A stretch of 64,000 nucleotides of DNA from positions 1,674,001-1,738,000 of the forward strand of contig NC_073408.1 of assembly GCF_028641065.1 (NCBI RefSeq). The letters run 5' to 3'. Both the position numbers and the translations under genes were made by a program. Source of the stretch: Leucoraja erinacea. Lineage: Eukaryota. The notes beneath the pieces were generated by a model. The model did not search any database. It had not been told where the DNA came from and saw only the letters and a list, made by a program, of their open reading frames with translations. Below, in pieces: positions 1 through 43,955 of the stretch (position 1 is its first letter; each line of letters starts with the position of its first letter).

Positions 1-1283
1 AACTCTTAAAGGCTACCCTACAGTACGAAATATAAGTGTCTCAGCCGGCTGGTAAGGAAAGCTGCAGAGGCAAAAACACCATTATCTCTTCACTCAAGTG
101 ATTACAGACACATTCAACATCTAATTCTTTAAAAGATTTTGTTTTTAAAAGCCACTGTTGCCAATCTGTCCGTCATGGACCAGACTTCAAAGGTGTATTT
201 GCTTGATTTGGATGCTCTTGAACATCAGCTCAAGAATGACTTAAACTTAAAGTTGAAAGTCAAAATAATTAAACAGGAAGGATATCAGGGTTCTTTGTAA
301 AATGTTCCTTAAGCTAACAATGTACACATCATGGGAGATCATTGCATGCCAAATTCTGTTATATATTGAAACCTATACAACTCATCTCCCAAATATAGAA
401 ATCTGAAGATAAAGCACGCACTGAAAGCAGCAAAGCTCTAACAGTAACTGTCAGTATTCTCACAAACATACCAGAGACACAAAACACACATCCCTCTAAA
501 AATCAAAATGCAAGTCATGTCCAAGAAAGTCAATTAGCTGTAAACCCAGGAAGGGAATAGAAGTTGACTTTGCAGACAAGACTTAATAGTTTTAAACAAA
601 TAAAATAAATGACACTGCTTTGTTCAATAGCAATTACAATATGGTAATAGTAACAACTGTTTTATGTCAAATTCAGGAAGCCAGAACATTGATAAACCTG
701 AAGACATACCGACTTTACTGTATAGCCACTTATGTGCAGTTACAAGGTAGCGTGGTCGAAATGTTCTAACAATTCCTCTCAAAAGTCCAAGTGTCCACCT
801 CACTGGGCCATTTCCATTCCAAATTCTCACTTTGAAATTAACACAATCTAAATTGTCTTCCAAGTCTCCACCATGCAGCTTAATGAAAATGGAACTCCTA
901 TCCTTCGAGACTCCTGTCACTCCAATAGGTTTTTTGAAGCGCAAAACTGAGCAGATTTCTCCAATATTTTGATTTATCTTGGTGCAGCAGATATATTCAA
1001 TATACATTTATTATAAAATCAGTGATCACTATCCTTATCACTGAAACTGAAAAGGGAAATTAATAAAAAGTGCATAATGCATGGCAGAAGTATAGAAGCA
1101 TACACCACTGTCTGGTGGTGTGTCCAACCTCACACAGGACTGATACAAAAAAAACACAAGAATCAGTCACATTCACGCAACAGACTTATGACAGATATTC
1201 TTAAGGTCCAATCAGTTTATTCATGGAAAGATAGTTTCCTGTATTAATTAGACCACATGGAGCACCAGTAAGTGGTCACCCAC

Positions 1284-1489
1284 CTCATCACTGTTGGTGT
1301 CATCTTTGGTTTCTCTGGTTCAATGATGGTGTCTGTTATCATGGAGGCTGCAGAGTTGCTGGAGATTCCTCCACTACCAAAGCCTCCAAACCCAGAGGTC
1401 TTCTTGCCTTGTCTTTCTGCGTCTCTGCGAGCCTGTTGCAATTCCTTGGCCTTTCGGCGCATCTCTGCTTTTGCTTCACGTTCTTGCGT
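1284..1489 (-). CDS. ARCN1: Coatomer subunit delta, exon 4 (gene continues beyond window start)
   Basis: ttttaag|ACG...ATGAG|gtggg, 206 nt; TQEREAKAEMRRKAKELQQARRDAERQGKKTSGFGGFGS... Confidence 0.95.
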
Positions 1490-1859
1490 CTTAAAAGGAA
1501 ATGCAAATAAATTTACATAGCCCAGACTTGAAAGGTTTGCATGTACTACATAGAATATGGATCGTAAATATGGCTTTCATTTTTGAATATTGTGCCCAGC
1601 AGGCAACAAGTGGATTATTTTGGAGTTGAAAAATGTCTTGGTATTTTGGGGATCCATGCAACACTGGCAAGGCCTGCCTTTATTGCCCATTCCTACACCA
1701 ACCCAGGATGATGGCTAATGGCTTCTTGATCTATTTCTTCTGACTAGAGTACAAACACAGAGGCTCGGCAAGAAAATTCCAGCATTTAGACCCAGAGATG
1801 TTAAAGGTTTGTGACACATTTCAGTCAGGATGCGACACGACTTCGGGGCAAGAGACTTT

Positions 1860-2597
1860 GAGATGTAACACCCGTCCCCATACCCTCTCCCTCACCTCCA
1901 ATCAGGGACCCCAGCAGCCCTTCCAGTTGACACATCTGGATTCACGTGCACCTCCTCTAACCTCACCTACTGCAATCAGTGTTCCCGTTGTGGGATCCTG
2001 TACATCGACGAGGCAGAGTATAAACTTGGTGACCGCTTTGCCAAACACTTGCACCTGGCCAGCTGGAACTCTTGGTTGTTAAGCATTTTAATTCCCATTC
2101 CCACACTGACCTTTCTGTCCTGGGCCTCCTCCATACCTAGTGTGAGGCCACATACAAACTGGACCAACAGCACCTCGTATTCTGCTTTGGTAGCTTACAA
2201 CCCAACGGTATGAACATTGAACTTTCTGATTTTAACTAACCCACAATAGTCTTCTTCTTCCTCCCCTTTCTCTCCTTTCTCTCCTCCTCCTCCCCTTCTC
2301 CCCCTTCCCTTGCATCATTTAGAATGGATACCCAGTTTGCAACTCTTTATTTTTTCAGCCTCACACCTCTACATCTCTGGCATTATCCAGCAATCTGCCT
2401 ATCAAATAACCCTCTCGTCTGTGTTCAACTATTACCGGTTGGGATCTGTCCAACCCCTCCTCTCTATTCTTTCTTTCCCACCCCCTCCTACAATCAGCCT
2501 GAAGAAATATTCCAACCCAGAACTTCACCTATCGATGTTCTCCAGGGATGCTGCCTGACCCGCTGAGTTACTCTAGCATTTTATGCCTATCTTTGAT
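1860..2597 (+). mobile_element. Degenerate Penelope-like 3' fragment (GIY-YIG + pLTR) in ARCN1 intron 3
   Basis: Similar to 60985-61415: CTGTACATCG..GAG, CAGCACCTCGTATTC, GGTATGAACATTGA, CT-rich spacer, GATGCTGCCTGACCCGCTGAGTTACT. Confidence 0.8.
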
Positions 2598-2680
2598 TCA
2601 GAAGAGTTTGATATCTAATCTCCTCCTACTTAGTTTTAAAAGTTTGACTGAACCATCAGGATTCTTTTTATCTTGGTTAC

Positions 2681-2860
2681 CTCTCGAACAGCACGGAAAA
2701 CTTTTTCTTCGTGGGAATCCATTTCTGTGAATGTTCTGATCTGGGCAAGATTGACATTTTCACGGTAGCCCAATGCCACAATCTCATCAAAGGCAAAGAT
2801 TAGGTCAAAACAATGTTCTGATATCTCACTCTCTTCCAGCACTCTGCAATACTCTGGAAT
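2681..2860 (-). CDS. ARCN1: Coatomer subunit delta, exon 3
   Basis: tgtag|ATT...CGAGAG|gtaac, 180 nt; IPEYCRVLEESEISEHCFDLIFAFDEIVALGYRENVNLAQIRTFTEMDSHEEKVFRAVRE. Confidence 0.97.
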
Positions 2861-4740
2861 CTACAAAACAAAAAGCAGTTGATCCAAACGCCTTTAAGAC
2901 AGACAAAAATAATCAATTTTAATGGGTTTTAGTCTGTGGTTTGTGAACTTTTTACTAGCTTTCTAGGAATTTAAATCAGTTAGACTTTGGAAATAAATAT
3001 TATAAAGGGAAATAGAAAGCAACTCCTTTGATCGTAGCAAATGTTAACTGAATACAGTATCATAAACTGATACAGATCAGAAGGGGCTCCATTATATGTA
3101 TACCTCCATTCAGGGCTTGTATCCAAAATCACCAACACTACAAAATCAGCAGGGGGTTGCTAAACACAAGGTAAACCATTTCTAAAACTAAATTTGCTTA
3201 GCTCAAGCATTCTTCAATTTTCTAATAAATCAGGCAAAAATAGAGTTGTGCAACACATTCATTCACCTAAACGATATTAACTCAAATAAGCTTTCTAATC
3301 TTAAAGATTATATCTGATAAACTATGCATAATGTTATTTAAAACAGGTCCAAATCCCACTCTCATGTCTTTACCCCCATCACTTTTTAGAACATTTGAGT
3401 AACAATATCTCTTATTCCAGAATCACAGCCTATCTTATACAGGTTCTTCAAATAAAACATTGGCAAATCTTTCTTGAACAGTCATTCCTCAATTATCTTT
3501 CAGAGCTGAAAGTTGGCTCAGACACCTTGAGTTCCAGAACATCGGTTTACAGCTTTACCCTTGGATTCTAAAGATCAGTCACAAGTATTATTTTAACTAA
3601 AGTCCATGGAATTAACTCCTCCTTATACCTCGAGACCGATCTCTAGTAGTTTAGTTTTGGCTACTAAACTACTCTAGAGAAATAACTTGCCTTCAAATGA
3701 CCCAATTTTCAGATCTTTCATTTGAAATTTTAGTTGATTTGACTATTTTTAAATTGCATGCTGACATCACAGACGCAATTCTTCAATCAAGAAAGGAAAT
3801 TAATTGGGAACTAGAGTGAAATGAAATTAGTTCTACAGTGTAATGTAGTGAATACTTCAGTGGGAAATTCACAAGTGAATATTTTATAAGCAATCAGGAA
3901 CTGGGCAAGACATACACATAATAATATTGCATTTTTTAAAAGGTATTGTTTGAGAAATATGCCAAGAGAAAACACTTCCTGATGTTAAATGCCTGCACAA
4001 AATGAGACAGAATAACACCAGATTTTTGATGGTGAAGAAAAAAAAAAGTTGTCATGAAAAATCCTTGTATTGTAACAAAACACTATACATATTTTGTGGC
4101 GCAAAAAATGGATGGATGGCAAGAGAAAGCAAACAGACTACTTTTACTTTTCTTTGCTGCCACTATTAAGGTATAACACCTTCTAAGCTAAGCTAGTTTA
4201 CGATATTACTGGCACAACTATAGCTAGCAATACAGATTGGATATAAAACTTATGATATGGTCAGAATCTCACAATCAGCTGATTCTGAAGTGAGCAAAGT
4301 TAATCTAAATCTCAAAATACACATACACCAACAGGACAGCCATGCTTAAAACTATTAAAAAATTGTTTTTGAATTTTAATCCCCCCCCCAATCATATTTA
4401 TCTTTAAAAAAACACCCGCTTGTCCCCATCTCAAATGGTAGATCCAGCAGCACAAATCTATCTTCCATTTTTCACAAGTTAGAGAGAGTTTTATAACATC
4501 AAATAACTTCCGGATATTTCAGGATCAGTCTATAAAAACATTTGAACCTATCATATGAAGCACAAATACAAAGGTAACAAGGATAATAGAATTGCTGGTG
4601 TACGAGAGGATTTTTTACAAATTAATTTGTATCAATAAACGTTATTTATCCCAGGAGAGAAATTGATAGAGTGCATATTCTAAAATTCAATCCAGTGCAT
4701 TTCACTTTGCGCACACTAATGGCTTGTTTATTGGTCTTAC

Positions 4741-5004
4741 CACTCGAGAGAATAGGCGGAGTGTTTCCAAATCTTCTAGGATGTTGCTATTTTTAGTTGT
4801 GATCAACACCATGTAGAGTTTTTCCAGTGGCTGGTAAACGTACCGCACACTCTCCGTCTCCACAAATGTGTGCTGTTTCCCAGTGTTCATGAGTTTTGGG
4901 AATGCTGCCAGCAAGCCTTCAATACGAGTCCGTGTCATTTCTACAAACTGGCGTGAGACAATTGCCTTCCCGGCCTTGGTGCAGACAGCTGTAGCCAACA
5001 GCAC
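4741..5004 (-). CDS. ARCN1: Coatomer subunit delta, exon 2 (longin domain)
   Basis: ag|GTG...CGAGTG|gtaag, 264 nt; [59 protein letters not shown]...LRLFSRV, near-identical to vertebrate delta-COP. Confidence 0.97.
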
Positions 5005-5161
5005 CTAGAGTGTGGAGGCAAGCAAAAACACAATAGGGGCAAATTTACACCACACAGTAAACTCGGTACAGTAGTTTTTTTTTTAAATTATATTTTTCCT
5101 GCAGCTCAGATATAGGATACAAAATACATAAAGGGAAAAGAGGAAAGCTGGGACATGACTG

Positions 5162-5400
5162 ATAGAAACATAGAAAATAGATGCAGGAGTAGGCCATTCG
5201 GCCCTTCGAGCCTGCACCGCCATTCATATGATCATGGCTGATCATCCAACTCAGTATCCAGTACCTGCCTTCTCTCCATACCCCCTGATCGCTTTAGCCA
5301 CAAGGGCCACATCTAACTCCCTCTTAAATATAGCCAATGAACTGGCCTCAACTACCCTCTGTGGCAGAGAGTTCCAGAGATTCACCACTCTCTGTGTGAA
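5162..5400 (-). mobile_element. CR1 3' tail fragment (young subfamily)
   Basis: Near-identical to 16402-16577, 26898-27241, 54491-54672, 55853-56079 and 63833-64000; older relatives at ~19950-20270, 23700-24290, 25375-25680, 25965-26210, 33975-34335, 34640-35115, 37190-37600, 45325-45600 and 59955-60185. Confidence 0.9.
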
Positions 5401-6689
5401 AAGACTGATGGAAACATTATAACCCAAAATTCCTCGCAACAGATGCGATAAATACTTTTTCCCTTGGAACAAGGAGTTCACTGTGGATTGTCAATTTCAT
5501 TTGTTCTTTAGCACTAATGTGGTGCTGCATTTTTGCAAGAAATCATTGTGCACAATCCTGAGCATAATTATTCTATAATGTTAAAGTATCCAAGTTGCCA
5601 CTACACAAACTTAAAAACATAACTGGTCTCAGTTTCCAGGTTCTATCTATTCAAGAGAAACAGGATAAGATGCTTGTAAAATCCAAATTCTGGATCCAAA
5701 AAAAGAATATTTAGCACTTCTATTCCCAAAGTTGTTTTAATGCCATTTAATATTAATAAGACAATGTTAAATGCATTAATTGGTCAAGAGAAAGAATATA
5801 GAATTTCCAATCCTCAGCAAACTAACAACAAGAGAGACCATCTCCAGCCATGCTGAGCTATTGTAGAAGCACTTTCACTCGCCCAATGGATATTCTGGCA
5901 TATAACCAGCAACTGAAAGTGTACACAAGTAACCAGAAAGTATTAGAACAAAAACATTTATATAGCAGCAGTTTGAAAATGTACAATAAAGCAAATATTC
6001 AAATATATTTGTTGTAAAAAACGTTCCTGATTGAAAATTTCACAGGCAAGGCACTTTTAGAACTGGCTCAAAGAAATTGACATCATAAACAACGAGCTGT
6101 AGTTATAAATAAAATCCCACAAAAAAAGAGAATAATTTCCCAGACCTTGCTGTTTACAGTATCATGATCAAACTAGCTATTCTGCATGAAGGAGTCTGCA
6201 CAATGCCATCATAAACTGGCAAGCCAATTCTAACTCAATACAACTATAATGTAACAATGATTATGAATCCTAGCCAATTTTGATTGCGAGGAGACATTTT
6301 TACCCTGCATATACCTTTCAGCCGTGAAGAATATGCTACCATAAATAAATTTCTCAAACCATGGACCATATCTTCCCATTCCCTTCTCTTGGATTCATCT
6401 ATGACTTTGTAAATCCAGCAATTATCCATTAACAGCAAAACACCTGTGCCCCTAATTGTCGAGTAGGTAAACAGAAAATTTATATTTGAGGCTCAGATCT
6501 GATGAAGCGTATTGGACCTAAAACAAACTCTTTCCTCAGATGCTGCCCGACCCAGCAAGTATTTCCAGCATTTTGTCATTTTCTTTCAGATTTCCAGCAT
6601 CTAATTTTTTTTCCTATCTTCTACCTTTTGTTACTTCTGCATTAGGAATAGATAATACCAAATATTTACACACACATTAATGACTGCCA

Positions 6690-7967
6690 TGTTTAAGAGG
6701 GAACTGCAGATGCTGGAAAATCGAAAGTAGACAAAAATGCTGGAGAAACTCAGCGGTTGAGGCAGCATCTATCCAGCGAAGGAAATAGCCAACATTTCGG
6801 GTTGAGACCCTTCTTCAGACTGATGTGAGGGTGGTGGGGCGGGAAGAAGAAAGGAAGAGGTGGAGACAGTGGGCTGAGGGAGAGCTGGGGAGGAGAAAGC
6901 CGGGACTACCTGAAATTAAAGAAGTCAATGTTCATACTGCTGGGGTGTAAACTGCCCAAGCGAAATACGAGGTGCTGCTCCTCCAATTTGCAGTGGGCCT
7001 CATTCTGGCCATGGAGGAGGCTCAGGACAGAAAGGTCGGATTCGGAATGGGAGGGGGCGTTGAAGTTCTGAGCCACCGGGAGATCAGGTTAGTTATTGCG
7101 AAATGAGCGGAGGTGTTGGGCGAAGCGATCGCCAAGCCTACGCTTGGTCTCACCAATGTAGAGCAGCTGACACCTAGAGCAGCGGATGCAATAGATGAGG
7201 TTGGGGGCGGTGCAGGTGAACCTCTGCCGCACCTGGAAAGACTGCTTGGGTCCTTAAATGGAGTCAAACGAAAAGTTGTTACGGGTAAGGGCCAGCTCCG
7301 CTAGGCGGAGGAGTGTATCAGTAGACGGGGATTGGTTGGTTCAGCGGTCGTGGAAGAAACGGAGAGCTTTAAGACCCTCCTGGTGGGGGATGGATGTGTA
7401 GAGTGACTGGACATCCATGGTGAAGATGAGGGAATGGGGGCCTGGAAAACGGAAGTGATGGAGTAGACGAAGAGCGTGTGAGGTGTCTTGAACATGGGTA
7501 GGGAGGGATTTAACCAGGGGGGGGGGGGGGAGGAGGAGATATGGATGGAGTCGAGGAATGTGGAAATAAGTTTGGTAGGACACGAACAGGCAGAAACAAT
7601 GGGACTGCCAGGTCAGTCTGGTTTGTGGATTTTGGGGAGAAGGTAAAATCGGGCCGTGCGGGGTTGGGGAACGATGAGGTTGGAGGCTTGGGAGGGCAGG
7701 GAGCCGGAAGTGATGAAGTCAGTGATAGTGTTAGAGATAGTGGCCTGGTGCTCGTCTGTGGGGTCATGGTCCATAAGTAGGAGGAGGTGTCTGAGAGTTG
7801 GCGCGTGGCCTCAGCCTTGTAGAGATCAGCGCGCCAGACTACCACGCCACCTCCCTTGTCAGCAGGTTTGATCACCCAGTCTGGGTTGTTGCAGAGTGAG
7901 TGGAGGGCTGTACGTTCAGGGGGGGAGAGGTTAGAGTGAGAAAGGGGAGTGGAGAAGTTGATGCGGT
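6690..7967 (-). mobile_element. Penelope-like element, 5'-truncated and internally deleted
   Basis: Minus-strand remnants VIKPADKGGGVVVW, FYLLPKIHK, IFTMDVQSLYTSIPH (RT) joined to YCIRC...LYIGETKRRLGDRFAQHL (GIY-YIG); ends in CTGAAGAAGGG...CCCGAAA and ...CAGTTCCCCTCTTAAACA; flanked by ATGACTGCCA(TG) at 6680 and 7968. Confidence 0.92.
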
Positions 7968-9434
7968 ATGACTGCCATGCTGCTTTCACCACACTCCACC
8001 CAACAGAATAATGAGGGCAATGTTTAATTGCCAAATTGGCACCATTCAATCACACCGACTATGTTCAATTTTCCTCTCCCCCGATAGACAAGTATAGAAA
8101 AGTCAAATTCCCTCTAGAAAAACAATATCAGGTACCGTTATTCACGTTGGATTACTAGCGATATTGATCGTGATAGTTTCATTTCCACAAATAATTTATC
8201 AAGCATCAGATGTCACATAACTTTAACAGAGTTAACGTCCAACTGTTACAAAACCGTTTGGAGAAAAATTAGTTAACAATGAAAATTTTTCTGTGTTAAA
8301 TATCACGGAAATCATTTTTGAAGATGAAATATCATTGGCTCTTTCAGAATATTTAGGTTCGTGATCAGATCACATGTAGGATTCAACTTCTCCCATGCCT
8401 GGAACGGGGAGTGCTTTGTTTAGGCAGAAGAACAAGTGACGGCACAACCAAACCTTAATTAATTTAAGACTTGCCTAGTCACACACATCACTACTATTAC
8501 ACTTGTTCCGTACACTCAAGCCCACAAGGAACTGGATGTCGCATTCCTAGAAAATGGTCCATGTTGGAAATTTCTAGAATGCAAAACCGAGTCATCTGTG
8601 CCTGTATTAAGACACAAGTTGAAAACATTTGACATTTATTTTTTTCTGTATCTCAATTATTTTGGGTAGTTATTTATGAATTTTGCAATCATTCATTCAG
8701 AGATAATGTCAGAAAAAGCACTTCAACCCGATGGCAAAAAAGCAATACAATTCTGGAACTCTCCCTAGAAAAACACTATTTAGGCTATGGGTCAACTCAA
8801 AATGTAGTTTGAGAAGATTTCTTTATCCTTCACTAAACAAAACAAAAAGATCAAGCAGAGGTACATTTACATCAGCTGTGACCGAATGCGATTATACAAT
8901 AGCTGAGTAATGAATGAGCCTTCATTCATTAAATCAGTTCATTTCCAACTTACAAACAGTTCTCAGGAGTGGAACCTGGAGACTGCCTGTGATATAAAAA
9001 TTAAAGAATTTGTTTCGATATTTAAAGAATATAAACTGCATCATTTCAAAGCACTATCTCCTCGTCTCAGTGACTGCAAACATGAAGCCAAACGTTTAGG
9101 GGATCAAGTCATAGTCCAGGCCTCAAATGAGAAACATCACCATTCATTTAATTTAACAACATTTATCCTTCAACTAATACCCTTATAGATAATTTCTTTC
9201 ATATGGGAACAAGTTTTTGCATACTTTGCTATTTAATCAAAATCTCCGCATTCTAGCCACAGAGCAAATAATACAAAATGTATCACTACTTCCTTACACA
9301 TGTGGACAAGTTCAATCTGTGTCTTTCATATGGCTCATCCAAAAACTATGTACACAGGAGGGTCGCAGCTACTTTGTATCGAGGGGTACAAAGGATACTT
9401 CTAAACCCACCTAAACCAACCTCTTTACTAACTA

Positions 9435-9677
9435 TGTTTAAGAAGGAACTGCAGATGCTGGAGAATCGAAGGTTACACAAAAAAGCTGGAGAAACTCAGC
9501 GGGTGCAGCAGCATCTATGAAGCGAAGGAAATAGGCAACGTTTCGGGCCGAAACCCTTCTTCAGACTGCAGAAATGAATCCGTCTGAAGAAGGGTTTCGG
9601 CCCGAAACGTTGCCTATTTCCTTCGCTCCATAGATGCTGCTGCACCCGCTGAGTTTCTCCAGCTTTTTTGTGTAACC
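9435..9677 (-). mobile_element. Penelope-pLTR-derived fold-back element (most complete copy)
   Basis: ~96-bp inverted arms (~9471-9566 / ~9582-9677) around a 15-nt loop, plus 36-nt tail; TSD CTCTTTACTAA(C/A)TA at 9421-9434 and 9678-9691. Confidence 0.9.
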
Positions 9678-11019
9678 CTCTTTACTAAATAGCCTAGCTT
9701 GGCCTCTAATCCCCCGGAAGAAATGAAAATGGGTTGTCAAAAGATTACTGTATACCATAGCCATAATTTTATCAAGAGATATGCGATTTTAAAAATCTAC
9801 CAGTCATGACAGTTAACAATGAAAGATTTAACAGTGAAATGCACTACAATGTCAATTCCCAATGCAAAACACTATATCCGTCGCCTGGTAGAGTACGAGT
9901 TTCAATTGCAGTCTGCACCTAGGTACAAAATCTTAAATTGGTAAATCCAGAGAATTTAATACGTAAATTGTTTAAGAACAGTGTACTATGGTGTGCCAGA
10001 ATTACCACATTTAATGTCAACAAATCAAAATTATTTGAAGAATTTTCCCTTTTCAGCAGGCCTTCGGTGGGTAGGTGATGGGTATTATATATTTCTGCAT
10101 TGACCTCCAGTTATTTATCCCCCATAAGCGAAGATATTCTCCACGTCTACTCTCATTACATTAAAGACTTGGCAAACCAAAACAACCCCCCCAAAATAAT
10201 CAGATTTCTCTTTATGAAAGAAGGTTTCAACCTATTCAGTCTTTTAAAACTTCTGAAACAATTCAATAGCTCTGATCAGTCAAACACAGCAAGCAAAGCA
10301 CAGGTGACCCCGCATTACAGCAGATCCCATATGGAAACTTTCCATATAGAATTTACAAATTTGAGTAAAAATCTGGGAAACAGAATTAAAATATGTGCTC
10401 TTACAAAATCTGTCAAAAAGTAAACAAATATATATATTTTTTCCCCCCAATTCATTTTTTGACAGATGTGCAGATGATGCAGTTTTGGTTAAGGAAAATG
10501 TGAGAGACCATTTTCTAGGAACACAACCCCCTCATGATGCAGGGGTCACCCGTATTACAGACACTCGTCTGCACAACCGGTGGCTCACTTTGCTACTGTT
10601 TGCTTAAAAATGTAGCTTTGTCAGAGTTAATTAGCACCGCCAGCCAAATTCAGTCATACTGTCATGGTCTTTAAATATGCATTAACTAACATATGCAAAG
10701 CAAAATATGTAAAACCCAGACAGGCTCTTACTTAACAATATTATTTGACATGTCTTCCTGAACTTGTGGCATGAAAATAGAAAAATAATTTGTCAGTCAC
10801 TTTGTCCCTCAAACCTGACCTAAATATTCCACAACAGTCAAGACTGGTCAAAATACAACAGGCTAATCTGTGCCCATATCCAAAACTCCCAATATTCACC
10901 AGAGCTCCATCATAAAGATTAACAACCAAACATTTGCCTAATGACACAAAATAAAGAAAACTGCATTCTTATCATCACCTTTTTCTCTTTTCTGAAATAC
11001 CACAATTCTTGGTTCTGGG

Positions 11020-11830
11020 GTTCTCTAAGTGCCAGGTGTTTAGAAGCGGCAGACTTCTTTGGGAGAATTGCTTAAACAATATGAAGATAATCCAACTCAG
11101 AAAGTGGTCCTATTGGACATTGTACTGGGGAACAAGTGTGATCCAAATTTCAGTGATGGAACATTTTTGGAACGGGGATCATAACGCTGTAAGTTTTAAG
11201 ATAGTTACAGGTAAGGGTGAAAGTGGTCCTAAAGTGAAAGGGCTACATTGGGGAAAGGAACAGGAAAAAGTACATTTGGAATAATTGTTTGGTTGTAAAT
11301 CCACATATGATAAGTGGCAGTTTTTTAAAGGCCTGTTGTTTAGTGACCAAAATGGTCCTGTGAGATGAAAGGTGAGAATAGTATGGTTCGAAAATCTTAA
11401 ATGACAAGAGATATTCCAAGTTTAGTCGAAAAGAAACTTGTGCAAAGTTTAGGAAACTAAAATCGGACAAGGCCCTTAGGATAAAGGAAACAGGAAAGAA
11501 GGAATTGGGAAAGCTTAAAGGGGACATGTCATGTCCTCAGCAAGTAAGATTAAAGAGAATCCCAAGACATTTTGTACATGCATGAGGAGAAAGCTGGTAG
11601 AGGAGGAAATTTATAGATGGGGCCAGAGGAAGTGAACAATACTCGTTACAGTATTTTGTATCTGTATTCACTAAGGAAAAGGATGGATGACAATTAAATC
11701 AGACAAGGGCATGGTGATATTTTAAGGCATGTAAATATTAAGGAAGTGTTGGAGTGTCTTGAAAAATGTTGAAGAGGCCAAGTGGCCAGGGTCTGATTGA
11801 ATTTATCCTAGGATATCGAGGGAGGCAACG
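11020..11830 (+). mobile_element. Old CR1 ORF2 fragment (post-endonuclease region)
   Basis: Decayed LDIVLG...EHF..GDHN.VSF...KENPKTF motifs; related piece at ~29570-29940. Confidence 0.65.
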
Positions 11831-13109
11831 GAAGGGGGCAATGGGACAATTAGAGTTGGATAAATGCCGACCTCAACGTATACTTAATTTACACTTGTTG
11901 TGAAGATGCCATCCAAAATACCCAATATTTACAGCCAATGGCAGGAAACAAAATTAGTGCTAAAAGCATGAAAATGTACATGACCATATGTTTAACACCA
12001 GTTGCAATTTTGAATTCCAAGTCAAACATTTTGTTCCCTTAAATTTAAAGATGAAAATCTTAATCCGCATTTTAACAAATGACAAATGGTGGAATTTCAT
12101 CACCCTGATGCACTTCTCCCCACCGTCAACTTTATACTCAAAAAAACTGACAAAGCCAACATGAAAAATTAAATAATTATACTTTAGGTTATATAGATTG
12201 TCAATACTAACACAAGTGAATTAACAAATAAATGAACCATGACTAGATCTGCTTTTTCGCAATGCACTATATGATGATGTGTCATATCCACACCACACAG
12301 AAAAAAAATGCCAGTCCTCTTGTTACTTACTCGATGCTGAAAGGAGTGTGTTGAGGGGAGACCCAGAAGGCACAAACATCTAATATAAAAACCAAGACTT
12401 AAATACAGCATTTGTTGCAAATATTTCAGAATCCTTAACTTCTGTCAAGTTAAGCAATCACTTTGGATTAAGCAACCTGCTTAAAGAAAAAATATATTTG
12501 TATTGCAATATTTCAGTAATTTCTTCTCAGTAATAGGAGAATGCTAAAGAAATACATGATTAAGAAGTGAATGCCGTATTCAACCTAACCCTTAAAGAGG
12601 ACTGGCTTGAGAAGTGAAGCGTCCAGGTCCACTTAAGGATATGTCAAAGAGTATTTCAAAGCAATTCAGCTAAAGGGGGAGGATGCTGGTTTGCACCGAA
12701 GACACAAAAAGCTGGAGAAACTCAGCCAGACAGGCAGCAGCATCTCTGGAGAAAAGGAATAGGTGACGTTTCGTGGTAGAAACAAAACACAAGGGGCCTC
12801 CACTCCCGAATAAATAAAACCCAGCCGAGGTTCGGTTCCATATTTGACACATACAATTATCTCAGTCCTCTCTCATCCACTATTGGAAACTCCAACGAGT
12901 ATGGTTTAACAAAATAAAGGTGAAGTTGGGCCTTAGATGAAATTAAAGCTGGTGTTGCCGGGCAGCAGGAGCGGCGATGGGGGAAGTGAGAGCAGATTCC
13001 AACTCTTTGTGGAGACCAAATATACTGCGGCCTAGTGACACTGGCTCGGCGCCGGCCCGGGCCCTCCACCCCCTCTCAACACACACACTACACACACCGG
13101 CCCGCTTAC

Positions 13110-13330: not shown

Positions 13331-14570
13331 CACACACACTGACTACACACACACACAGACTACAGGTATATGTATGTACACACACAGACTACAGGCAGGG
13401 AGGCAGGCTGCAGGTATATGTATGTACACACACACACACTGACTACACACACACTGACTACACACACACACAGACACACACACACTGACTACACACACAC
13501 AGAACACAGGCAGGGAGACAGGCTGCAGGTATATGTATACACACACACACTACACACACACACAGAACACACACACACTGACTACACACACACAGACTAC
13601 ACACACACAGAACACATATAGGGAGACAGGCTGCAGGTATATGTGTACACACACTGACACACACACACACACACAGAACACACACACAGAACACAGGCAG
13701 GGAGACAGGCTGCAGGTATATGTATACACACACACTGACTACACACACACAGAACACAGGCAGGGAGGCAGGCTGCAGGTATATGTATATACACTCACTA
13801 CACACACACACAGGCACACACGTATATATATATATATACATACACACACACTGACTACACACAGAACACAGGCAGGGAGGCAGGCTGCAGGTATATGTAT
13901 ACACACACTGACTACACACACACACACTGACTACACACTCACATACACACCCACTCACTCACTCACACTCACACACACAGAACACAGGCAGGGAGGTAGG
14001 CTGCAGGTATATGTATATATATACACACACACGCAGGTATATAATATAATATACACACACACACACATATATATTTACACACACACACACACCTCCAGTT
14101 TAAATTCCATTTGGAATATTTTGGAGGACCAAGAAATCAAGAAGAACCAAGAACACAGGCAGGGAGGCAGGCTACAGGTATTATGTATATATACACACAC
14201 ATACATATACACATACCCACATATATATTTACACACACACAGGCAGGCAGGTATATACACACACACACACACAGAGGCAGGCAGGAGGCAGAGTCCAGGT
14301 TGCTTCAATCATTGTCATATGGCACAGACAGAACAATAACACAACATGTAAACGTTGTACTCTGTAAACAATATAATCAATGAGAAAAAAAGTTCAGTGT
14401 GTGTGTATATATATATATATGTATACATATACACATACACATACACACGTATATATTTACACACCCATACACACAGGCAGGCAGGAGGCAGAGTCCAGGT
14501 TGCTTCAATCATTGTCATATGGCACAGACAGAACAATGACACAACATGTAAACATTGTACTCTGCAAAAC
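13330..14570. repeat. Compound CA-rich minisatellite plus ~200-bp tandem duplication
   Basis: Repeated unit ACAGAACACAGGCAGGGAG(A/G)CAGGCTGCAGGTATATGTAT(AC)n with ACTGACT(AC)n spacers; block GGCAGGAGGCAGAGTCCAGGTTGCTTCAATC...TTGTACTCTG duplicated at ~14280-14365 and ~14480-14565. Confidence 0.9.
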
Positions 14571-16594: not shown

Positions 16595-16718
16595 ACTACA
16601 AGACCCAGAATCCTCCGCGGCTCAGCGCATGCGCAGGGCCGGGCTCTCCCCCCCGCCCCCCGTGGCCCGACAACTACTTCCGGCGGGGTGACCTTGGTTG
16701 GAGACGCCAACATGGCGG
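16595..16718 (+). promoter_or_regulatory. SDHD promoter (ZNF143/SBS, NRF1, GC box, ETS/GABP, YY1 motifs)
   Basis: ACTACAAGACCCAGAATCC (16595-16613), GCGCATGCGC (16625-16634), CCCGCCCC (~16652), ACTTCCGG (16676-16683) and AACATGGCGG over the ATG; a typical motif set for nuclear-encoded respiratory genes. Confidence 0.75.
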
Positions 16719-16760
16719 CGGTCGTCAGGCTGAGTGCGCTGTGCAGGCGCGGCCTTCAAT
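16712..16760 (+). CDS. SDHD: Succinate dehydrogenase cytochrome b small subunit, exon 1 (transit peptide)
   Basis: CCAACATGG Kozak; MAAVVRLSALCRRGLQ + T|gtaagt, 49 nt, phase 1. Confidence 0.9.
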
Positions 16761-17062
16761 GTAAGTCTTCGTTTCTGCCCATTTGTGGCGGGTGGAGAGT
16801 ACTTCATCGGACCCGCCCGCTGTCGTCTGTCGACAGACCCTCATTCTGCAGAATGGGGACAAACAAATGCCGGAGTAACTCAGCGGGACATTTGTGCCTG
16901 GGGCAGCATCTGTGGAGGATGTTTCTGGTCGAGACCCTTCTTCAGTCTGGCCCGTTCCTTCTCTCCACAGATGCTGCCTGTCCCGCAGAGTTTCTCCGGC
17001 TTTTCTGTGTCTTTAGAGTTGACTAAACGTGATTTATTTTACCTTGTATTTGTACACTGGAC

Positions 17063-17098
17063 CAAAGATCTTATAGCAGATTCGCTATAAGATCTTTG
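17063..17098. mobile_element. 36-bp palindromic micro-MITE with 8-bp TSD
   Basis: CACTGGAC-[CAAAGATCTTATAGC AGATTC GCTATAAGATCTTTG]-CACTGGAC. Confidence 0.85.
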
Positions 17099-17337
17099 CA
17101 CTGGACGGCTCGATTGTCATCATGTAGAAACATAGAAACATAGACAATAGGTGCAGGAGGAGGACATTCGGCCCTTCGAGCCAGCACCGCCCTTCATTGT
17201 GATCATGGCTGATCGTCCCCTATCAATAACCCGTGCCTGCCTTCTCCCCATATCCCTTGACTCCACTAGCCCCTAGAGCTCTATCTAACTCTCTTAAATC
17301 CATCTAGTGATTTGGCCTCCACTGCCCTCTGTGGCAG

Positions 17338-17888
17338 TTTTGGTCTCCAAATCTGAGGAAGGACATTATTGCCATAGAGGGAGTGCAGAGACGGTTCACC
17401 AGACTGATTCCTGGGATGTCAGGACTGTCTTATGAAGAAAGACTGGATAGACTTGGTTTATACTCTCTAGAATTTAGGAGATTGAGAGGGGATCTTATAG
17501 AAACTTACAAAATTCTTAAGGGGTTGGACAGGCTAGATGCAGGAAGATTGTTCCCGATGTTAGGGAAGTCCAGGACAAGGGGTCACAGCTTAAGGATAAG
17601 GGGGAAATCCTTTAAAACCGAGCTGAGAATAACTTTTTTCACACAGAGAGTGGTGAATCTCTGGAACTCTCTGCCACAGAGGGTAGTTGAGACCAGTTTG
17701 TTGGTTATATTTAAGAGGGAGTTAGATGTGGCCCTTGTGACTAAGGGGATCAGGGGATATGGAGAGAAGGCAGGTACGGGATACTGAGTTGGATGATCAG
17801 CCATGATCATATTGAATGGCGGTGCAGGCTTGAAGGGCCGAATGGCCTACTCCTGCACCTAATTTCTATGTGTCTGTGTCTATGTTTC
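17338..17888 (+). mobile_element. CR1-clade LINE 3' fragment (RT C-terminus + 3'UTR)
   Basis: VQRRFTRLIPGMSGLSYEERLDRLGLYSLEFRRLRGDLIETYKIL...TRGHSLRI...FFTQRVVNLWNSLP; (TTTCTATG)n-type tail. Joined to an opposite-strand CR1 tail at 17125-17337. Confidence 0.93.
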
Positions 17889-18959
17889 CTAATATTTTTC
17901 CTGCATCCAGCTTGTCCAGTATAATCTTTGTATAATCTTTCTGCTGACTGGTTAGCACACAACAGACGCTATTCACTGTACCTCGGTACATGTGGCAGTA
18001 AATTGAACTAAGAAGGGTCTGAACGACTCTGAAACGTCACCCATTCTTTTATCCAGAGATGCGGCCTTGACCCACTTACTTGACCCCCTTACTCCAGTTT
18101 TTTGTCAGTGTTCGGTGTAAACCAGCATCTGCAGTTCCTTCCTGCACAGTTAACTACCACCTCCAGTTTAAATTCCATTTGAAATATTTTGGAGGACCAA
18201 GAACCCCGTGTCAGAGAGCAGTGGGAAGGCAACTCAGGCTGTGCCATGGTTGCTGTGGCAACGCCGTCACCCCGACTGGGTGCACCAATATCATCGCTAT
18301 CAGTACAGTGTGCAATTGTTCTTTGTAAAACAAAGGGCTGGAGTAACTCTGTGGGTCAGGCTCCATCTGTGGAGGGGTGTTTTGCAAGTGACCTTTCACA
18401 CTTCCTCAGACTCAGTGTAGCATTTAATCAGTATTAATGAGTTTAAATCTCAGTGTAGAGTATAATCATCTTAAATGGATTTAAGTCTTGACTCAGCTCA
18501 AGCATTTAGCGGTTACTGTGAAGTGGAAGAGATTTAGATGTGATTTTGTAGGAGTGCTCAAAAGCCATGAAGGGTTACTGGAGAGAAATGAAGATGAGAC
18601 TGTCCAATGTCTAAAGTGTTATAAGTTCTGGCTGTGCAATTTCTTGCTGATATTGTTCTTGTATACTGGGGTGTGTCCAGCAAAGGCTTTATTACATAAA
18701 GTTACAGAATTTGATGTTTATTCTGGAAAGTTGTGACATGGCCAAATGAAAGATGGGCAGTTTTTTGTCGAGCTTACATTTGATCCTGTAGCACCTATTC
18801 CAATTTCTACATTGCATGAACAAAGGTTTGCTGAACATCTTTGTAATAGGTTTTATTTATAGACAATCAGTAACAGAGTAAGTCTGTCTTGAGAGTGTCT
18901 TCTGGTTTGCCTCTCAGATTGACAAACAAGTTTAATGCCTTTTTCTTTCTTGTTTCTAG

Positions 18960-19070
18960 CACCATTCTTATGCAAGTCATTGGTGGCTGGGCCTCTTATT
19001 GCTTCAAGAAAGACCCAGGAATCCCATGTGCTACTCTTATCTCGGATTCACACATCTCCTTGCCATTTTG
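18960..19070 (+). CDS. SDHD: SDHD exon 2
   Basis: Polypyrimidine tract + ctag|C...TTTG|gtaagt, 111 nt, phase 1-1; SPFLCKSLVAGPLIASRKTQESHVLLLSRIHTSPCHF (IHxSP as in vertebrate SDHD). Confidence 0.88.
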
Positions 19071-19151
19071 GTAAGTGTTGTAGTGTGGGTTTTTTTTATT
19101 GATGGTAAGGCCAAGATTTGTTTCTGTGGGGTGCTTAGGAGAGAGTTATTT

Positions 19152-19420
19152 TGTTTAGTTTAGAGATACAGCTTTGGCACACTGAGTCCGCACCGATCAG
19201 CGATCCCTGCACATTAACGCTATCCTACACACACTAGGGACAATTCATACCTACACCAAGCCAATTAACCTACAAATCTGTACGTCTTTGGAGTGTGGGA
19301 AGATCTTGGCGAAAACCTACGCAATCACGGGGAGAATGTACAAACTCCGTACAGACAGCACCCAGATCGAACCCAGGCTGCTGGCCCTGGAAGGCAGCAA
19401 CTCTACCGCTGCGCCACCCT
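19152..19420 (-). mobile_element. HE1-like V-SINE
   Basis: Reverse complement of the 35357-35668 family with (CTAAA)n tail. Confidence 0.8.
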
Positions 19421-20895
19421 GCTGGCCTTAGGTTATGTGAAGCATGAGGTGTGTACAAAGTGTTTCCTTCTATTAGTGGATTCCAAATTAGTGATACCAA
19501 CATATCTTAGTATTATTCCTTGCTACCACTGACAATGCAGGTACATCCTTACTGGAAATTAGAAATTTAAAATAAAAGATGGAAAACGACAGAGAAAAAT
19601 ATGAACCAAATATCTGAACCAAATTTGAATTTTGTTCTGTGTTAATCAGTTATCTTGTTTTGCTTTGAAAACTCTTCAATTTATACTATAGAGAAACCAT
19701 CTCCAAGGCATCACAAAGTATGTGCAACAGTCTATTCTACATGAAAATCTAGCTTGTTCGGTGCAGATTTACAGCTTGAGTAATTTCAATAAAATGTGCT
19801 GCAAATAGATTGCAGTAAAGGTTGAACTTGGTATAGTTCTACATTGCTGCAATGTATTCCATACCAAGAATGCAGAAGATCAGGTAATCTAGATACCACG
19901 TGGAAAGCAAAAATAAATAACATTTAAGGACCAGAGGTCATAGCTAAGTTTCCACTAGTGGGAGAGTCTAGGATTAGAGGTCACAGCCTTAGAATTAAAG
20001 GAGGTTCTTTTAGGAAGGAGATGAGGAATTTCATTAGTCAGAGGGAGGTGACTGGAATTCTTTGCTACAGAAGGCTGTGGAGGCCAAGTCAGTGGATATT
20101 TTTAAGGCAGAGACTGATAGATTCTTGATTAGTACGGTGTCAGAGCTTATGGAGTGAAGGCATGAGAATAGGGTTAGGAGGGAGAGAGAGATCAGACACG
20201 ATTGAATGGTGGAATATACTCGATGGGCCGAATGGCCTAATTGTGTTCCTATCACTTATGATCTTATGAAAACAAACCGTCTTTCCACATAACTTAAATG
20301 CTCCAACTTAAACAACATCCTGATGACTTTCCTCTACACTCTCTCTGGTGTAATTATATCCTTCGTATAGAGTGATAACTGGAACCAAACCCAATATTAT
20401 TCCACTTGTGGCTAAACAAATGTAAAGTTTTTCCATAACCTCCCTGGTCTAGCATTCTATGCCTAGGCTAATGAGGGCAAGTATCTCATTTGCCTTTCTC
20501 GACACCTTCTCGGATCCTTGGACTTGTCCATGAAGGCCCCTCTGTTTCTTAATAGTTAGTTTAGTTTAACTTATTGTCACGGTTACAAAGGTACAGTGAA
20601 AAGCTTTATTGCTGCACAGTATCCAGTCGGCGGAAAGACTATACATGATTACAATCAAACCGCCCGCAGTGTACAGATACAGGATAAAGGGAATAACATA
20701 AGAATAACAAGTTGCTGCCTTCCTCTACCTACCTGTGTCATCACTTTCATGGATCATGTACTCCTTCCACGGTCTTGCTGTTTAATCACACTCCCAAGGG
20801 CACTGGCATTCATTGCGATGTTGTGGCCCGGTTTAATTATGTGATGATTGTTATTGAAATTAGAGAACCGTGTTTAGTCTTGTCTTCTCTCTTAG

Positions 20896-21040
20896 CTGGT
20901 TCCAAAGCTGCTTCTGCACACTGGACGAGTGAACGGATAGTGAGTGTCGCCTTACTTGGCCTTTTCCCTGCTGCCTACATCTACCCAGGATCTGTCATGG
21001 ATTACTCACTGGCTGCAGCAATCACTCTCCATGGTCACTG
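20896..21040 (+). CDS. SDHD: SDHD exon 3
   Basis: cttag|CT...CACTG|gtaag, 145 nt; [49 protein letters not shown] (contains the haem-ligand His). Confidence 0.97.
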
Positions 21041-21667
21041 GTAAGGCCTTTTTTTGAACCTTGTCCTTTAATGCACTCTGTGAATTTGTTTTTCTGGCTA
21101 CTCTTCGCAATTTGATCTCCCAATATACACAAAGGTTCAAATCTTCCATAATTATTACACCCCTGATCATCCTTTTAATGTTGTGTTTGTTCTTCCTGGT
21201 CTCTGTTTTATTCAGAACCCAAAATCTTTCCAAACATGTTACTAAACTGTTGCTCTTTTGATTTTTATTTCTGACTTATGGTTTAATCAGTCTTTCCAAA
21301 TATGAAGATTCTCAAAACATTCTCCAATTAACTTACTGGTTGGAAATAATCTGATTCTAACATCACAGTATCTACACCATAACAGACTGGAACTATGACC
21401 CATTATTTCAATATCCTAAAATAAAGTTTGGGAAAACAGGCTGGTTCACATACCACAGAAAAATATCTGCACTCACCATTGATTTGAACACTGTGCAAGC
21501 TCTGAAGAAGAGTCCCGACCCGAAACGTCAACCATTCCTTCTATCCAGAGATGCTGCCTGTCCCGCTGAGTTACTCCAGCTTTTTGTGTCTAGCCTCAAT
21601 GTCTGCTTATTTCCCGTGGTGGTTAACCTATTTTATTTTTTATTTTTATCTGTGTGTTTCCTTTCAG

Positions 21668-25095: not shown

Positions 25096-26897
25096 AAAGG
25101 AGGAGCTTGAAATTGATTCGAAAAAGATAAAGCTTTTTTTTTAAAGTGGAAAGCTAAAATAACATGCAATTGAAAATGCATTATTCTTCACCAGGTGTTG
25201 CACCAGTTGCCATCCACAATTCGATTTCAATATATTTGGTAAGTTTTTGCAGCAACTAAAGACCTGGTGTATAGTATCCAATTTTGGGACTTCAGGGAGA
25301 ATGAGGTGAAAGTTTAGCAGAGATTGATTCAATTGGTCCAAAGACCAAACGTCTCGTGAAGATACGTTTATCAGTGATAGGAGCAGAATTAGGCCATTCG
25401 GCCCATCATATTTACTCCACTATTCAATCGTGCCTGGTCTATCTTCCCCTATTAACCCCATAACCCCGAACACCCGTACTAATCAATAATCTATCTCTCT
25501 GCCTTAAAAGTATCCATCGACTTGGCTTTCGCAGCCTTCTGTAGCAATGAATTCAAGAGATTCACCACCCTCTGACTAAAGAAATTCCTCCTCATCTCCT
25601 TCCTGAAGGAACTTAGTTTTATTTTGAGGCTATCACCTCTGATCCTAGACTCTCCCGCTAGTGGAAACATCCTCTCTATCCAGGCCAAGTAATCCTCCTC
25701 AAAGCAGAGAAAGCTAAAGATATTGAATTTAAAATCATGTAGAAATTGGAAAGCGTAGAAATTCTGTCCTCATTAATCAGAGAGTATTGAGATTCAAAGT
25801 GATTTCATGGACTAAGAAGCGAGATAAAAAATGTTGGAGAAACTCAGTGGGTGAGGCAGCATCTATGGAGCGAAGGAAATGGGCAACGTTTCGGGTCGAA
25901 ACCCTTCTTCTGACTGATTTTCCAGCATCTGCAGTACCTTCTTAAACAACTCGTGGTCTAAGAACATGTTTTTTTCACATAAAGGGTGGTGGATGTATGG
26001 AACAAGCTGACAGAGGAGGTTGTTGAGGCAGGGACTATCCCAGCATTTAAGAAGCAGTTAGACAGGTACATGAATAGGACAGGTTTGGAGGGATATGGAC
26101 CAAGCGCAGGCAGGTGGGACGAGTGAAGCAGGGACATGTTGGCCAGTGTAGGCAAGTTGGGCCGAAGGGCCTGTTTCCACCCTGTATCACTTTATGACTG
26201 TGACTCTAACATGGTATTTGTTAAAGAGGAATGCTGTACTCTGGGCACCAGTCAAGTTGATGGGATGAGAAACAAAGCTGACAATCTAACCACAACGGTA
26301 GATGCTCGACTCGGGTGTGGTTAATACTGCTGCCTCTGCATTTCTTGATATGAAATTGAACCTACAGCTTACAGATATCACTCAGTGTAATATTGAACAC
26401 AGAAACCGAGCAGTGAGCAGAAGAGTGCATCTGGACTTTGGAATGTCCCTGACTTTCATGATCCAACCACTGACAGCTTATCTTCAGTCATTCAGACCAC
26501 AAGCCCTGATGTTTCCCGTCAAACCTCCCTGGCTCTATACCGCATCCTCCGTCAGCTGACCGCTACTCTAACCATCGAATGCAGCTCGTTTGATTTTGGT
26601 TGAAAATATTTCTGCGTTCAGTCCAGGAATATTTTACAGCATTACAAATGTTACATGAAGATGAGCTATTGGTAGTTAAGATTGTTGTTTGAGAGAAATT
26701 CTGATAATGCAAAGGTGAACATGGAAAAGATTTATTGAAGAGCAGAATTGGGGCTAGTAATTTTAAGATGGTAGCTAATAAATCCAGAATTTGGGAGAGG
26801 TGAATTAATAAATACAGTCAGGAAAGGAGAATGGTGCGGATAACATAGGCTTGGATGTAAACGGGGCTGCAGAAATTGAATCTGGTGGGTAAAGGGG

Positions 26898-28013: not shown

Positions 28014-28359
28014 TGTTTAAGAAGGAACAGCAGATGCTGGAAAAATCTAAGGTAGATAAAATGCTGGAGCAACTCAGCATCTAAGGTGTTTCAGAGGGAA
28101 CTGAAGAAGGGTTTCGGCCCGAAACGTTGCCTATTTCCTTCGCTCCATAGATGCTGCTGCACCCGCTGAGTTTCTCCAGCTTTTTTGTGTAACCTCAGCA
28201 TCTAAGGAATAGGTTACGTTTCTGGTCGAGACCCTTCTTCAATCTGAAGAAGGGCGACGTTTCTGGTCTGAAGAAGGGTCTAGACCCGAAACGTCACCTA
28301 TTCCTTCGCGCCATAGATGCTGCCTCACCCGCTGAGTTTCTCCAGCATTTGTATCTACC
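28014..28359 (-). mobile_element. Fold-back element with a second family member nested inside (28087-28193)
   Basis: Outer TSD ATGGACATTAGATT (28000-28013 / 28360-28373); inner TSD CTCAGCATCTAAGG (28073-28086 / 28194-28207). Confidence 0.88.
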
Positions 28360-28652: not shown

Positions 28653-28823
28653 TGTTTAAGAAGGAACTGCAGATGCTGGAAAAATCGAAGGTTGATAAAA
28701 ATGCTGGCGAACTTCAGCGGGTGAGGCAGCATCTATGGAGCGAAGGACTAGGTGACATCACCGATTCCTTCGCTCCATAGATGCTGCCTCACCCGCTGAG
28801 TTTCTCCAGCATTTTTGTCTACC
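28653..28823 (-). mobile_element. Fold-back element, centre deleted
   Basis: TSD TTACTGTTCAAAA (28640-28652 / 28824-28836); same termini as 9435-9677. Confidence 0.88.
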
Positions 28824-31031: not shown

Positions 31032-31273
31032 TTTAAGAAGGAACTGCAGATGCTGGAAAATCGAAGGTAGACAAAAGTGCCGGAGAAACTCAGCGAGTGC
31101 AGCAGCATCTATGGAGCGAAGGAAATAGGCAACGTTTCGGGCCGAAACCCGGAAGGGTTTCGGCCCGAAACGTTGCCTATTTCCTTCCGGGTTTCAGGCC
31201 GAAACGTTGCCTATTTCCTTCGCTCCATAGATGCTGCGGCACCCGCTGAGTTTCTCCGGCACTTTTGTCTACC
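31032..31273 (-). mobile_element. Fold-back element in last IL18 intron
   Basis: TSD AAGATATTGAAGCA (31018-31031 / 31275-31288). Confidence 0.88.
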
Positions 31274-32465: not shown

Positions 32466-32666
32466 GGAAGACAATAACGCTGGAGAAACTCAGTGGGTGA
32501 GGCAGCATCTATGAGGCGAAGACACAGGCGACGTTTCGATGAAAGGGTCCGAAGAAGGGTCTCGACACGAAAAGTCGCCTATTCCTTCGCTCCATAGATG
32601 CTGCCTCAATCCGCTGAGTTTGTCCAGCATTTCTGTCAACCTTCGATTTTTCCTGCATCTTAAACA
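32466..32666 (+). mobile_element. Fold-back element, diverged
   Basis: Inverted arms, ends CTTAAACA; ACCTCGTGGAAGA repeated on both sides. Confidence 0.75.
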
Positions 32667-43643: not shown

Positions 43644-43955
43644 CTGAAGAGTGGTCTCGACCCGAAACGTCACCTATTCCTTCGCTCCATAGATGCTGCC
43701 TCACCCACTGAGTTTCTCCAGCATCTGTGGAGCGAAGGAATAGGTAACGTTTCGGGTCGACCCTTCCGGGACCCTTCAGTCAGAAGAAGGGTCTCGACCC
43801 GAAACGTCACCTATTCCTTCATCAGTCAGAAGAAGGGTCTCGACCCGAAACGTCACCTATTCCTTCGCTCCATAGATGCTGCCTCATCCGCTGAGTTTCT
43901 CCAGCAATTTTATCTACCTTCGATTTTTCCAGCATCTGCAGTTCCTTCTTAAACA
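43644..43955 (+). mobile_element. pLTR-derived element with three direct hammerhead-like cores
   Basis: C(T/A)GAAGA..GGTCTCGACCCGAAACGTCACC at ~43644, ~43781 and ~43828; flanked by GGTCCC(T/A)GAGA. Confidence 0.8.

Follow-up and report, generated by a model that had tools for sequence, protein, structure and literature searches.

Inverted pLTR insertions of a Penelope-like element in Leucoraja erinacea pair two fixed ends and are probably built anew at each insertion

A 64-kb stretch of the Leucoraja erinacea genome (on contig NC_073408.1; the window, to which all counts below refer) holds numerous short insertions lacking an open reading frame (ORF) in which the pseudo-long terminal repeat (pLTR) of a Penelope-like element (PLE) is present as two inverted arms, only one of which carries the tail of the element. 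An earlier note on this DNA had proposed that these insertions form a defined hairpin-RNA family. Our analysis points instead to a spectrum of insertion outcomes within this window. We think it likely that a Neptune-type Penelope-like retrotransposon gave rise to the hairpins as its shortest insertions, dead on arrival, and we hold with rather more confidence that the hairpins are made de novo at each insertion and do not constitute a defined family.

Positions within the element are counted from its 3′ end, position 1 being the last base of the tail, positions 1–36 the tail and positions 37 to ~137 the pLTR. Structures were obtained by jump alignment of 25 pLTR loci against two window copies, together with inspection by eye. 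All eight insertions for which the earlier note had described both ends are real, and two more (25819–25948 and 28087–28194) were found, giving a core set of ten two-armed insertions bounded by target-site duplications (TSDs), from which older copies without a clear TSD were excluded. Ten two-armed copies in 64 kb amount to 1.6 per 10 kb, in keeping with the density of more than one per 10 kb given before. Each of the eight loci first listed has its own target duplication, and a length of ~11–14 bp holds for seven of them, where the duplication is exact; the eighth, at 61631, is 16 bp long with two mismatches, and over the ten copies (eight exact, two with two mismatches) the range widens to 11–16 bp. 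TSD scores of at least 12 were reached at 10 of the 25 tested pLTR loci, as against scores of at least 11 at 8 of 394 random boundary pairs put through the same loose search; the misses among the 25 loci are mostly old, diverged copies. The 36-nt tail quoted in the earlier note occurs at five places in the window with at most three mismatches (0.00 expected), the remaining copies having 1-nt indels or deletions within it. A tail of 36–37 nt, partial (17–30 nt) in two copies, lies at one end of all ten.

These two-armed, TSD-bounded copies are constant in the way their ends are paired. One end lies at position 1 and the other at position 37 in ten out of ten, an outcome with a probability of at most 0.001 were the ends chosen independently, and at the position-37 end the element overlaps the target by 1–6 nt in six of the ten (p ~0.02). 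Each arm is antisense when read from its own target primer. Inward, 19 of 51 pLTR segments stop at positions 128–137, none stops at 138–175 and three, which are coding copies, extend beyond. The same ends are used by products of other kinds, namely a solo tail-ended copy (31442), a solo tail-less arm (56414), a long non-inverted copy (6690) and a multiply switched copy (43641). The earlier derivation of the insertions from the pLTR and tail of a PLE is borne out, and, being ORF-less and TSD-bounded, they were almost certainly made by the reverse transcriptase (RT) and endonuclease (EN) of that element. The focal insertion (Table 1) has arms that are complementary at 98% across 99 nt, with a hairpin folding energy of −199 kcal/mol (z −28.9).

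The centres of the insertions vary. Listed in locus order as tail-arm end/inverted-arm end, the ten copies read 134/132, 30/134, 128/131, 17/130, 105/104, 122/125, 132/111, 120/122, 112/132 and 64/121, so that all ten pairs are distinct, and copy length runs from 108 to 346 nt (421 nt counting the insert in 55800). The description of an ORF-less unit of ~150–250 nt is thus right as to the ORFs and wrong as to the length. We compared junctions by shared 11-mers among 11 insertions (the ten plus 43641; 55 pairs), and 52 of the 55 pairs have no junction 11-mer in common; the earlier note had itself named fold-back points that vary genome-wide as telling against a family. Two of the ten copies (25819 and 28087) are stemless. 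The inverted arms of the young copies 9435 and 28087 are identical (0 of 93 differences), the centres of the two are unrelated, and their tail arms measure 134 nt and 17 nt, respectively.

At least three pLTR variants are represented among the arms, which resemble each other within copies (distance 0.086) more than between copies (0.12–0.14); in a permutation over eight copies (25819, 28087 and 43641 left out), only 6 of 40,320 re-pairings were as good. This grouping bears on the idea that the copies go back to a single ORF-less hairpin master, or to a small number of them, whose transcripts the PLE protein inserts again as whole units, with deletion diversifying the centres afterwards. Such masters would account for the fixed outer ends, the TSDs and the high density, as well as for the composite centre common to 31032 and 55015, and long perfect hairpins are prone to deletion; non-autonomous PLE derivatives do exist, in the form of MRC1 (PMC8557442) and retrozymes. 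We nonetheless consider this origin quite improbable: a remnant of a common loop is absent even beside a full-length arm, the arms group by copy across three pLTR variants, two copies are stemless, and nothing in a hairpin RNA would set the position-37 end, which would be set by an RT start site. In addition, the sequence 3′ of the tail that is required in vitro is absent from the copies.

The arm ends also bear on a second alternative, by which a single tail-primed cDNA folds back or switches template at short palindromes and goes on to copy its own sequence, with a cut or a join at position 37 completing the process. The match of arms within copies fits this scheme, as does the frequent location of centres at short palindromes or microhomologies (28653, 55015 and 43641) and the presence in 43641 of an inversion without a position-37 end; self-priming has been argued for in PMC3846280, and resolution of the tail by the EN in PMC8557442. 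In seven of the ten copies, however, the inverted arm extends beyond the limit of the tail arm and holds sequence missing from it, by at least 20 nt in four of them (20–113 nt), which indicates that simple self-copying of the tail arm did not produce it. A later one-sided deletion would be needed each time, even in the young, exact-TSD copy 28087, and a solo tail-less arm beginning at position 37 exists (56414). We accordingly think this scheme unlikely as an account of the ten copies, although self-priming probably does explain 43641.

In L1 twin priming the element RNA is primed from both strands of the target, and a 5′ inversion arises within one TSD. The skate insertions resemble this in that both strands would prime and the inversion lies inside one TSD; L1 has a variable second site and non-overlapping arms, whereas neither site varies in the skate and overlap of the arms usually yields a hairpin. 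A mechanism of this type, at two fixed start sites, is what we propose, its details being in our judgement only somewhat better than evenly supported. The GIY-YIG/RT protein would nick both target strands 11–16 nt apart, consistent with the observed TSDs and with the two-strand cutting known for a Poseidon PLE. Both 3′ ends would then prime cDNA within the element RNA, using position 1 for one cDNA and position 37 for the other; the two ends are observed and two start sites are known, from which we infer their joint use on opposite strands. The cDNAs would reach at most ~130–137, at the junction of the 5′ pLTR and the ORF, or stall earlier. The stop is observed, and its cause would most likely be the 5′ end of the RNA: an initiator-like sequence lies at the boundary at ~128–137, and for that reason we treat it as the RNA 5′ end. 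At 6822–6860 (−) and 61290–61320 (+) the 5′ boundary of the pLTR follows a pyrimidine tract and AG, and resembles an initiator and a splice acceptor alike, the two being indistinguishable here. Finally, short homologies, added bases or template jumps would allow the two cDNAs to be connected head to head, a process suggested by the observed junctions, leaving one tail and a differing centre. The template might be one RNA, or two RNAs held by the dimer predicted in PMC11167929, and a minority of centres may descend from a source copy in which the 5′ pLTR was inverted beforehand. Copies 25819 and 28087 correspond to the non-overlapping products that classical twin priming predicts; full hairpins would need a trailing cDNA that displaces the leading one, or a second RNA.

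The biochemistry of Poseidon_Ac from the green anole, the only PLE tested in vitro, is relevant here (PMC11167929). Its protein cuts and extends both target strands, its reverse transcription begins at two internal sites separated by an interval equal to the tail, and its template is uncleaved RNA. Positions 1 and 37 of the skate element fit the two anole RT start sites: both systems have two fixed ends one tail-length apart, use both target strands and keep the hammerhead core uncleaved in the copies. Poseidon_Ac belongs to another clade, and the main text of PMC11167929 is silent on inverted arms and reports no strand bias in the start site, whereas the skate copies pair the two sites in ten of ten. 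We put at about even the chance that use of the two RT start sites is obligatorily paired, with one site serving each target strand. Poseidon_Ac needs RNA to +172 of the ORF, past the start site at +111–118. The skate copies end at the tail, without that required downstream RNA, and so, extrapolating across clades, should not move again.

Several observations weigh against de novo formation by twin priming. The longer reach of the inverted arm is not significant as a distribution (p 0.16). Copies 31032 and 55015 share a composite centre, 55015 being 31032 minus a 23-nt deletion between direct repeats, and they carry one common variant base in the inverted arm; a related junction appears again in 43641, which belongs to another pLTR variant, and a weaker one is common to 28014 and 55800, so that 3 of the 55 pairs have some shared junction. 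The arms of 55015 and those of 55800 differ at a seemingly subfamily-diagnostic position, both states of which occur elsewhere, a mismatch for which one RNA template is insufficient and two templates or later conversion would be needed. Post-insertion deletion of unstable hairpins, or assembly error, could be the source of the variable centres, and a mosaic at 51322–51560 suggests garbling. An older copy outside the ten, 46167–46339, seems tail-less at both ends (among the excluded old copies, 32850 and 62173 look tail/tail-less and none is tail/tail). The window holds no coding copy of the youngest pLTR variant (8–11 differences in ~90 nt), and PMC11167929, working on another clade, found no strand difference in the start site.

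The centre common to 31032 and 55015 could come from an inverted-5′-pLTR source, from a recurrent jump or from an assembly effect. Four instances of one 9-nt junction are spread over three loci (31148–31191, 55097–55105 and 43762–43770) that represent two pLTR variants; it may be inherited, a cap-templated base or an artefact. In the neighbouring insertions 55015–55236 and 55800–56220 the tail arms share one variant base and the inverted arms the other, a pattern that is not an inversion between them, since their TSDs are intact. We consider it doubtful, though worth stating, that a sub-lineage with the 31032/55015 centre, echoed in 43641, has been inherited as a unit, an inverted-pLTR source being transcribed and the PLE protein priming at both tail ends so that the fold-back is propagated. 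If so, the sub-lineage would amount to a PLE parasite that lacks an ORF and is arranged head to head, separate from tandem retrozymes and hidden among de novo products. In searches for further copies beyond the window, a 21-nt motif run against bacterial and archaeal genome contigs returned no matches, and a 70-aa frame across the 31032 centre gave no near-length hits, none among seven longer candidates and none in a representative library.

It is very unlikely, in our view, that assembly or polishing errors introduced the centres, and some of the variation, into real hairpin insertions that are in truth more uniform. The window does hold 640 N, and structures of this type trouble assemblies (PMC8557442); the locus at 51322–51560, where fragments of the pLTR and of a second repeat form a mosaic, perhaps with a degenerate TSD, is either an assembly artefact or a two-template insertion. 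Arguing against such artefacts are the exact TSDs, the nested insertion, which is clean and has a TSD of its own, and the equally varied centres of old, diverged copies.

The pLTR includes a minimal-hammerhead-like core, with a full stem II in 7 of the 16 core-pattern matches in the window; the conserved boxes around stem II, an extra base after position 9 and a G-C closing pair are present. Across 18 mostly decayed copies, 76.5% of the cells in stems I/II are paired, as against 8–44% when the stems are slid, and covariation in the same copies amounts to no two-sided changes and no excess over shuffles. Rfam gave no hammerhead match up to an E value of 5, and its miRNA matches fall below the gathering score and reflect the hairpins only. 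The core resembles the minimal hammerhead ribozymes of metazoan PLEs (PMC4209133) in its boxes, its extra base before stem II, its G-C closing pair, its palindromic bases in place of helix III and its occurrence as opposite-strand pairs, pairs 100–700 bp apart having been read in that paper as truncated PLEs. Unlike those ribozymes, it has a helix I of only ~2 bp and shows no covariation in these copies, and its activity is putative, judged from sequence. Hammerhead cleavage was rejected as the cause of the arm ends, the expected site being at ~103 and most arms passing through to 128–137. At 43776–43955 the core is duplicated head to tail, with a changed core base in both units, and the jump is to ~90–92, a point also used in 31032, 55015 and 28014; this arrangement could be the seed of a retrozyme-like tandem. 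A sigma-70 scan, irrelevant to a eukaryote, found nothing.

Assignment to a PLE class starts from the coding copy at 6690–7967, which, as previously stated, has the same tail and a TSD. This copy is disrupted by stops, frameshifts and an internal deletion. Its GIY-YIG domain matches Pfam above the cutoff (E 2e-5), RVT_1 matches weakly over a 49-aa piece (E 0.17), and a DKG motif is found in the translation; a Pfam scan of eight raw window ORFs gave nothing useful. By tblastn, PLE proteins from cartilaginous fish are the matches of both the RT and the EN pieces, the best match to the EN piece being a Leucoraja erinacea protein (85%), followed by other rays and sharks. A CX2-5CxxC motif is present in the close relatives P0001, P0004 and P0006 (70–85% identical to the EN piece), and the corresponding stretch is deleted in the 6690 copy. 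Upstream of GIY-YIG this motif marks Neptune and also Nematis (PMC8557442); the donor element appears to be Neptune-type, as judged from the motif in close relatives and not from an RT tree. The element is an EN+ PLE: its donor has an RT with a C-terminal GIY-YIG, and its insertions have a one-ended tail and an inverted, 5′-truncated copy within one TSD. Likewise, Neptune-type EN+ PLEs are described (PMC8557442 and PMC3846280) with such a donor, a pLTR, a one-ended tail (of 30–40 bp), a head-to-head inverted arm, a TSD of ~10 bp or more, and solo pLTRs, and an inverted 5′-truncated copy with the tail on one end is the standard insertion form of PLEs (PMC8557442, PMC3846280 and PMC8969392). The skate differs from the EN+ PLEs described there in that the ORF-less two-arm form is the commonest (10, against 3–4 coding fragments in 64 kb), and its TSDs of 11–16 bp are longer than those of the rotifer examples (8–10).

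Non-LTR retrozymes (PMC7229834; bioRxiv 10.64898/2026.07.22.740005) are likewise ORF-less, pLTR-related and PLE-dependent and have a type I hammerhead-like core, but they are described as head-to-tail tandems with at least two complete hammerheads and circular RNAs, whereas the skate copies are head-to-head single insertions. The earlier comparison with retrozymes and short interspersed nuclear elements (SINEs) is therefore not upheld, the former failing on the head-to-head arms and the latter on the lack of a tRNA-type head; the accompanying statement that there is no RNA polymerase III head agrees with our finding of no ARAGORN genes and only sub-threshold Rfam hairpins (A and B boxes were not scanned separately). 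Miniature inverted-repeat transposable elements (MITEs) and other palindromic non-autonomous DNA transposons are short, abundant, ORF-less and fold back, as the skate copies do. Membership was rejected on account of the tail at one end only, which leaves the termini other than mutual inverted copies, and the TSD length, which is 11–16 bp and not fixed; the sequence, moreover, corresponds to the 3′ end of an RT element. We also dropped the idea that the copies are related to Eulor or UCON13 repeats, for which passages of PMC5753468 offered no support. The insertions are thus PLE products that would work like twin-primed insertions, and fall outside retrozymes, SINEs and MITEs.

Table 1 Coordinates of the focal insertion, the coding copies and the other pLTR insertions in the window.
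Feature	Coordinates	Strand	Details
Focal: left TSD	9421–9431		11 bp, exact; then 3 extra bases, 9432–9434
Focal: 36-nt tail	9435–9470	−	positions 1–36; the tail's two ends are the two fixed insertion ends
Focal: tail-side pLTR arm	9471–9568	−	positions 37–134; jump alignment
Focal: minimal-hammerhead-like core, tail arm	9537–9564	−	
Focal: same core, inverted arm	9584–9611	+	
Focal: 13-nt spacer	9569–9581		in no other copy
Focal: inverted pLTR arm	9582–9677	+	positions 132–37, tail-less
Focal: right TSD	9678–9688		11 bp, exact
5′-truncated, internally deleted coding PLE copy	6690–7967	−	RT pieces, GIY-YIG, 3′ untranslated region (UTR), pLTR, tail; no inverted arm; TSD 10–12 bp
Two-ended insertion, no fold-back possible	25819–25948	+	inverted arm 37–134 and 30 nt of tail; 14-bp TSD, 2 mismatches
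Hairpin insertion, multi-switch centre	28014–28359	−	14-bp TSD; host of nested copy 28087
Nested young insertion, no fold-back possible	28087–28194	−	~17 nt of tail and inverted arm 130–37; 13-bp TSD
Hairpin insertion	28653–28823	−	arm ends 105 and 104; 13-bp TSD
Hairpin insertion, composite centre	31032–31273	−	122 / 125–90 / 122; 14-bp TSD
Solo pLTR and tail	31442–31572	−	1–131; no inverted arm; TSD unclear
Hairpin insertion	32466–32667	+	arm ends 111 and 132; deletion in tail; 13-bp TSD
Tail-ended insertion, four template switches	43641–43955	+	tandem core duplication; no position-37 end; 12-bp TSD, 1 mismatch
Hairpin insertion, composite centre common to 31032	55015–55236	+	12-bp TSD; arms differ at variant positions
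Hairpin insertion	55800–56220	−	arm ends 112 and 132; another repeat within, at 55854–56079; 11-bp TSD
Solo tail-less arm	56414–56480	−	37–105; possible 9-bp TSD, 1 mismatch
Second coding fragment	60993–61418	+	end of EN, 3′ UTR, pLTR; no tail
Asymmetric hairpin insertion	61631–61780	−	arm ends 64 and 121; 16-bp TSD, 2 mismatches

The nested insertion at 28087–28194 sits inside an arm of the older copy and has its own exact 13-bp TSD, which may point to targeting by the element of its own pLTR. The repeat within 55800 is the 226-bp 3′ end of an abundant repeat resembling long interspersed nuclear elements (LINEs), with 14 further matches in the window at 73–100%. At 12682–12783, 32850–33061, 46167–46339, 56726–56829 and 62166–62347, the same arrangements of arm and tail are found in an older sister pLTR, whose tail differs in sequence. 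An unrelated and perhaps MITE-like inverted repeat lies at 50551–50860 (84-nt arms, 96%, 142 nt apart), and long simple tandem arrays beside N gaps at 56890–58780 and 13458–14380 give rise to spurious open frames. Host exons at 1244–13090 (−) have a weak Pfam match to, presumably, coatomer delta, and those at 16595–21044 (+) match CybS (E 6e-9), presumably SDHD; copies 6690 and 9435 appear to lie within the first intron of the coatomer-delta-like gene.

A search of titles and abstract openings that did not cover subscription papers found no published description of this hairpin family or of twin priming in PLEs, and PMC11167929, PMC8557442 and PMC3846280 treat as an unsettled question how PLEs come to have inverted pLTRs of which only one bears a tail. 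A new parasite family would matter a good deal, and the evidence from this window argues against one. Copies of this kind could be mislabelled as MITEs or miRNA precursors, and perfect stems of ~95 bp in introns could yield double-stranded RNA. For the question of the inverted pLTR, clean, short products bounded by TSDs occur in this genome at more than one per 10 kb, and among them the one-of-each pairing of ends, the stop at 128–137 and the stemless copies provide a direct genomic test of two-site twin priming. Obligate pairing of the two start sites, if true, would account for the single tail that accompanies the inverted pLTR across PLEs.

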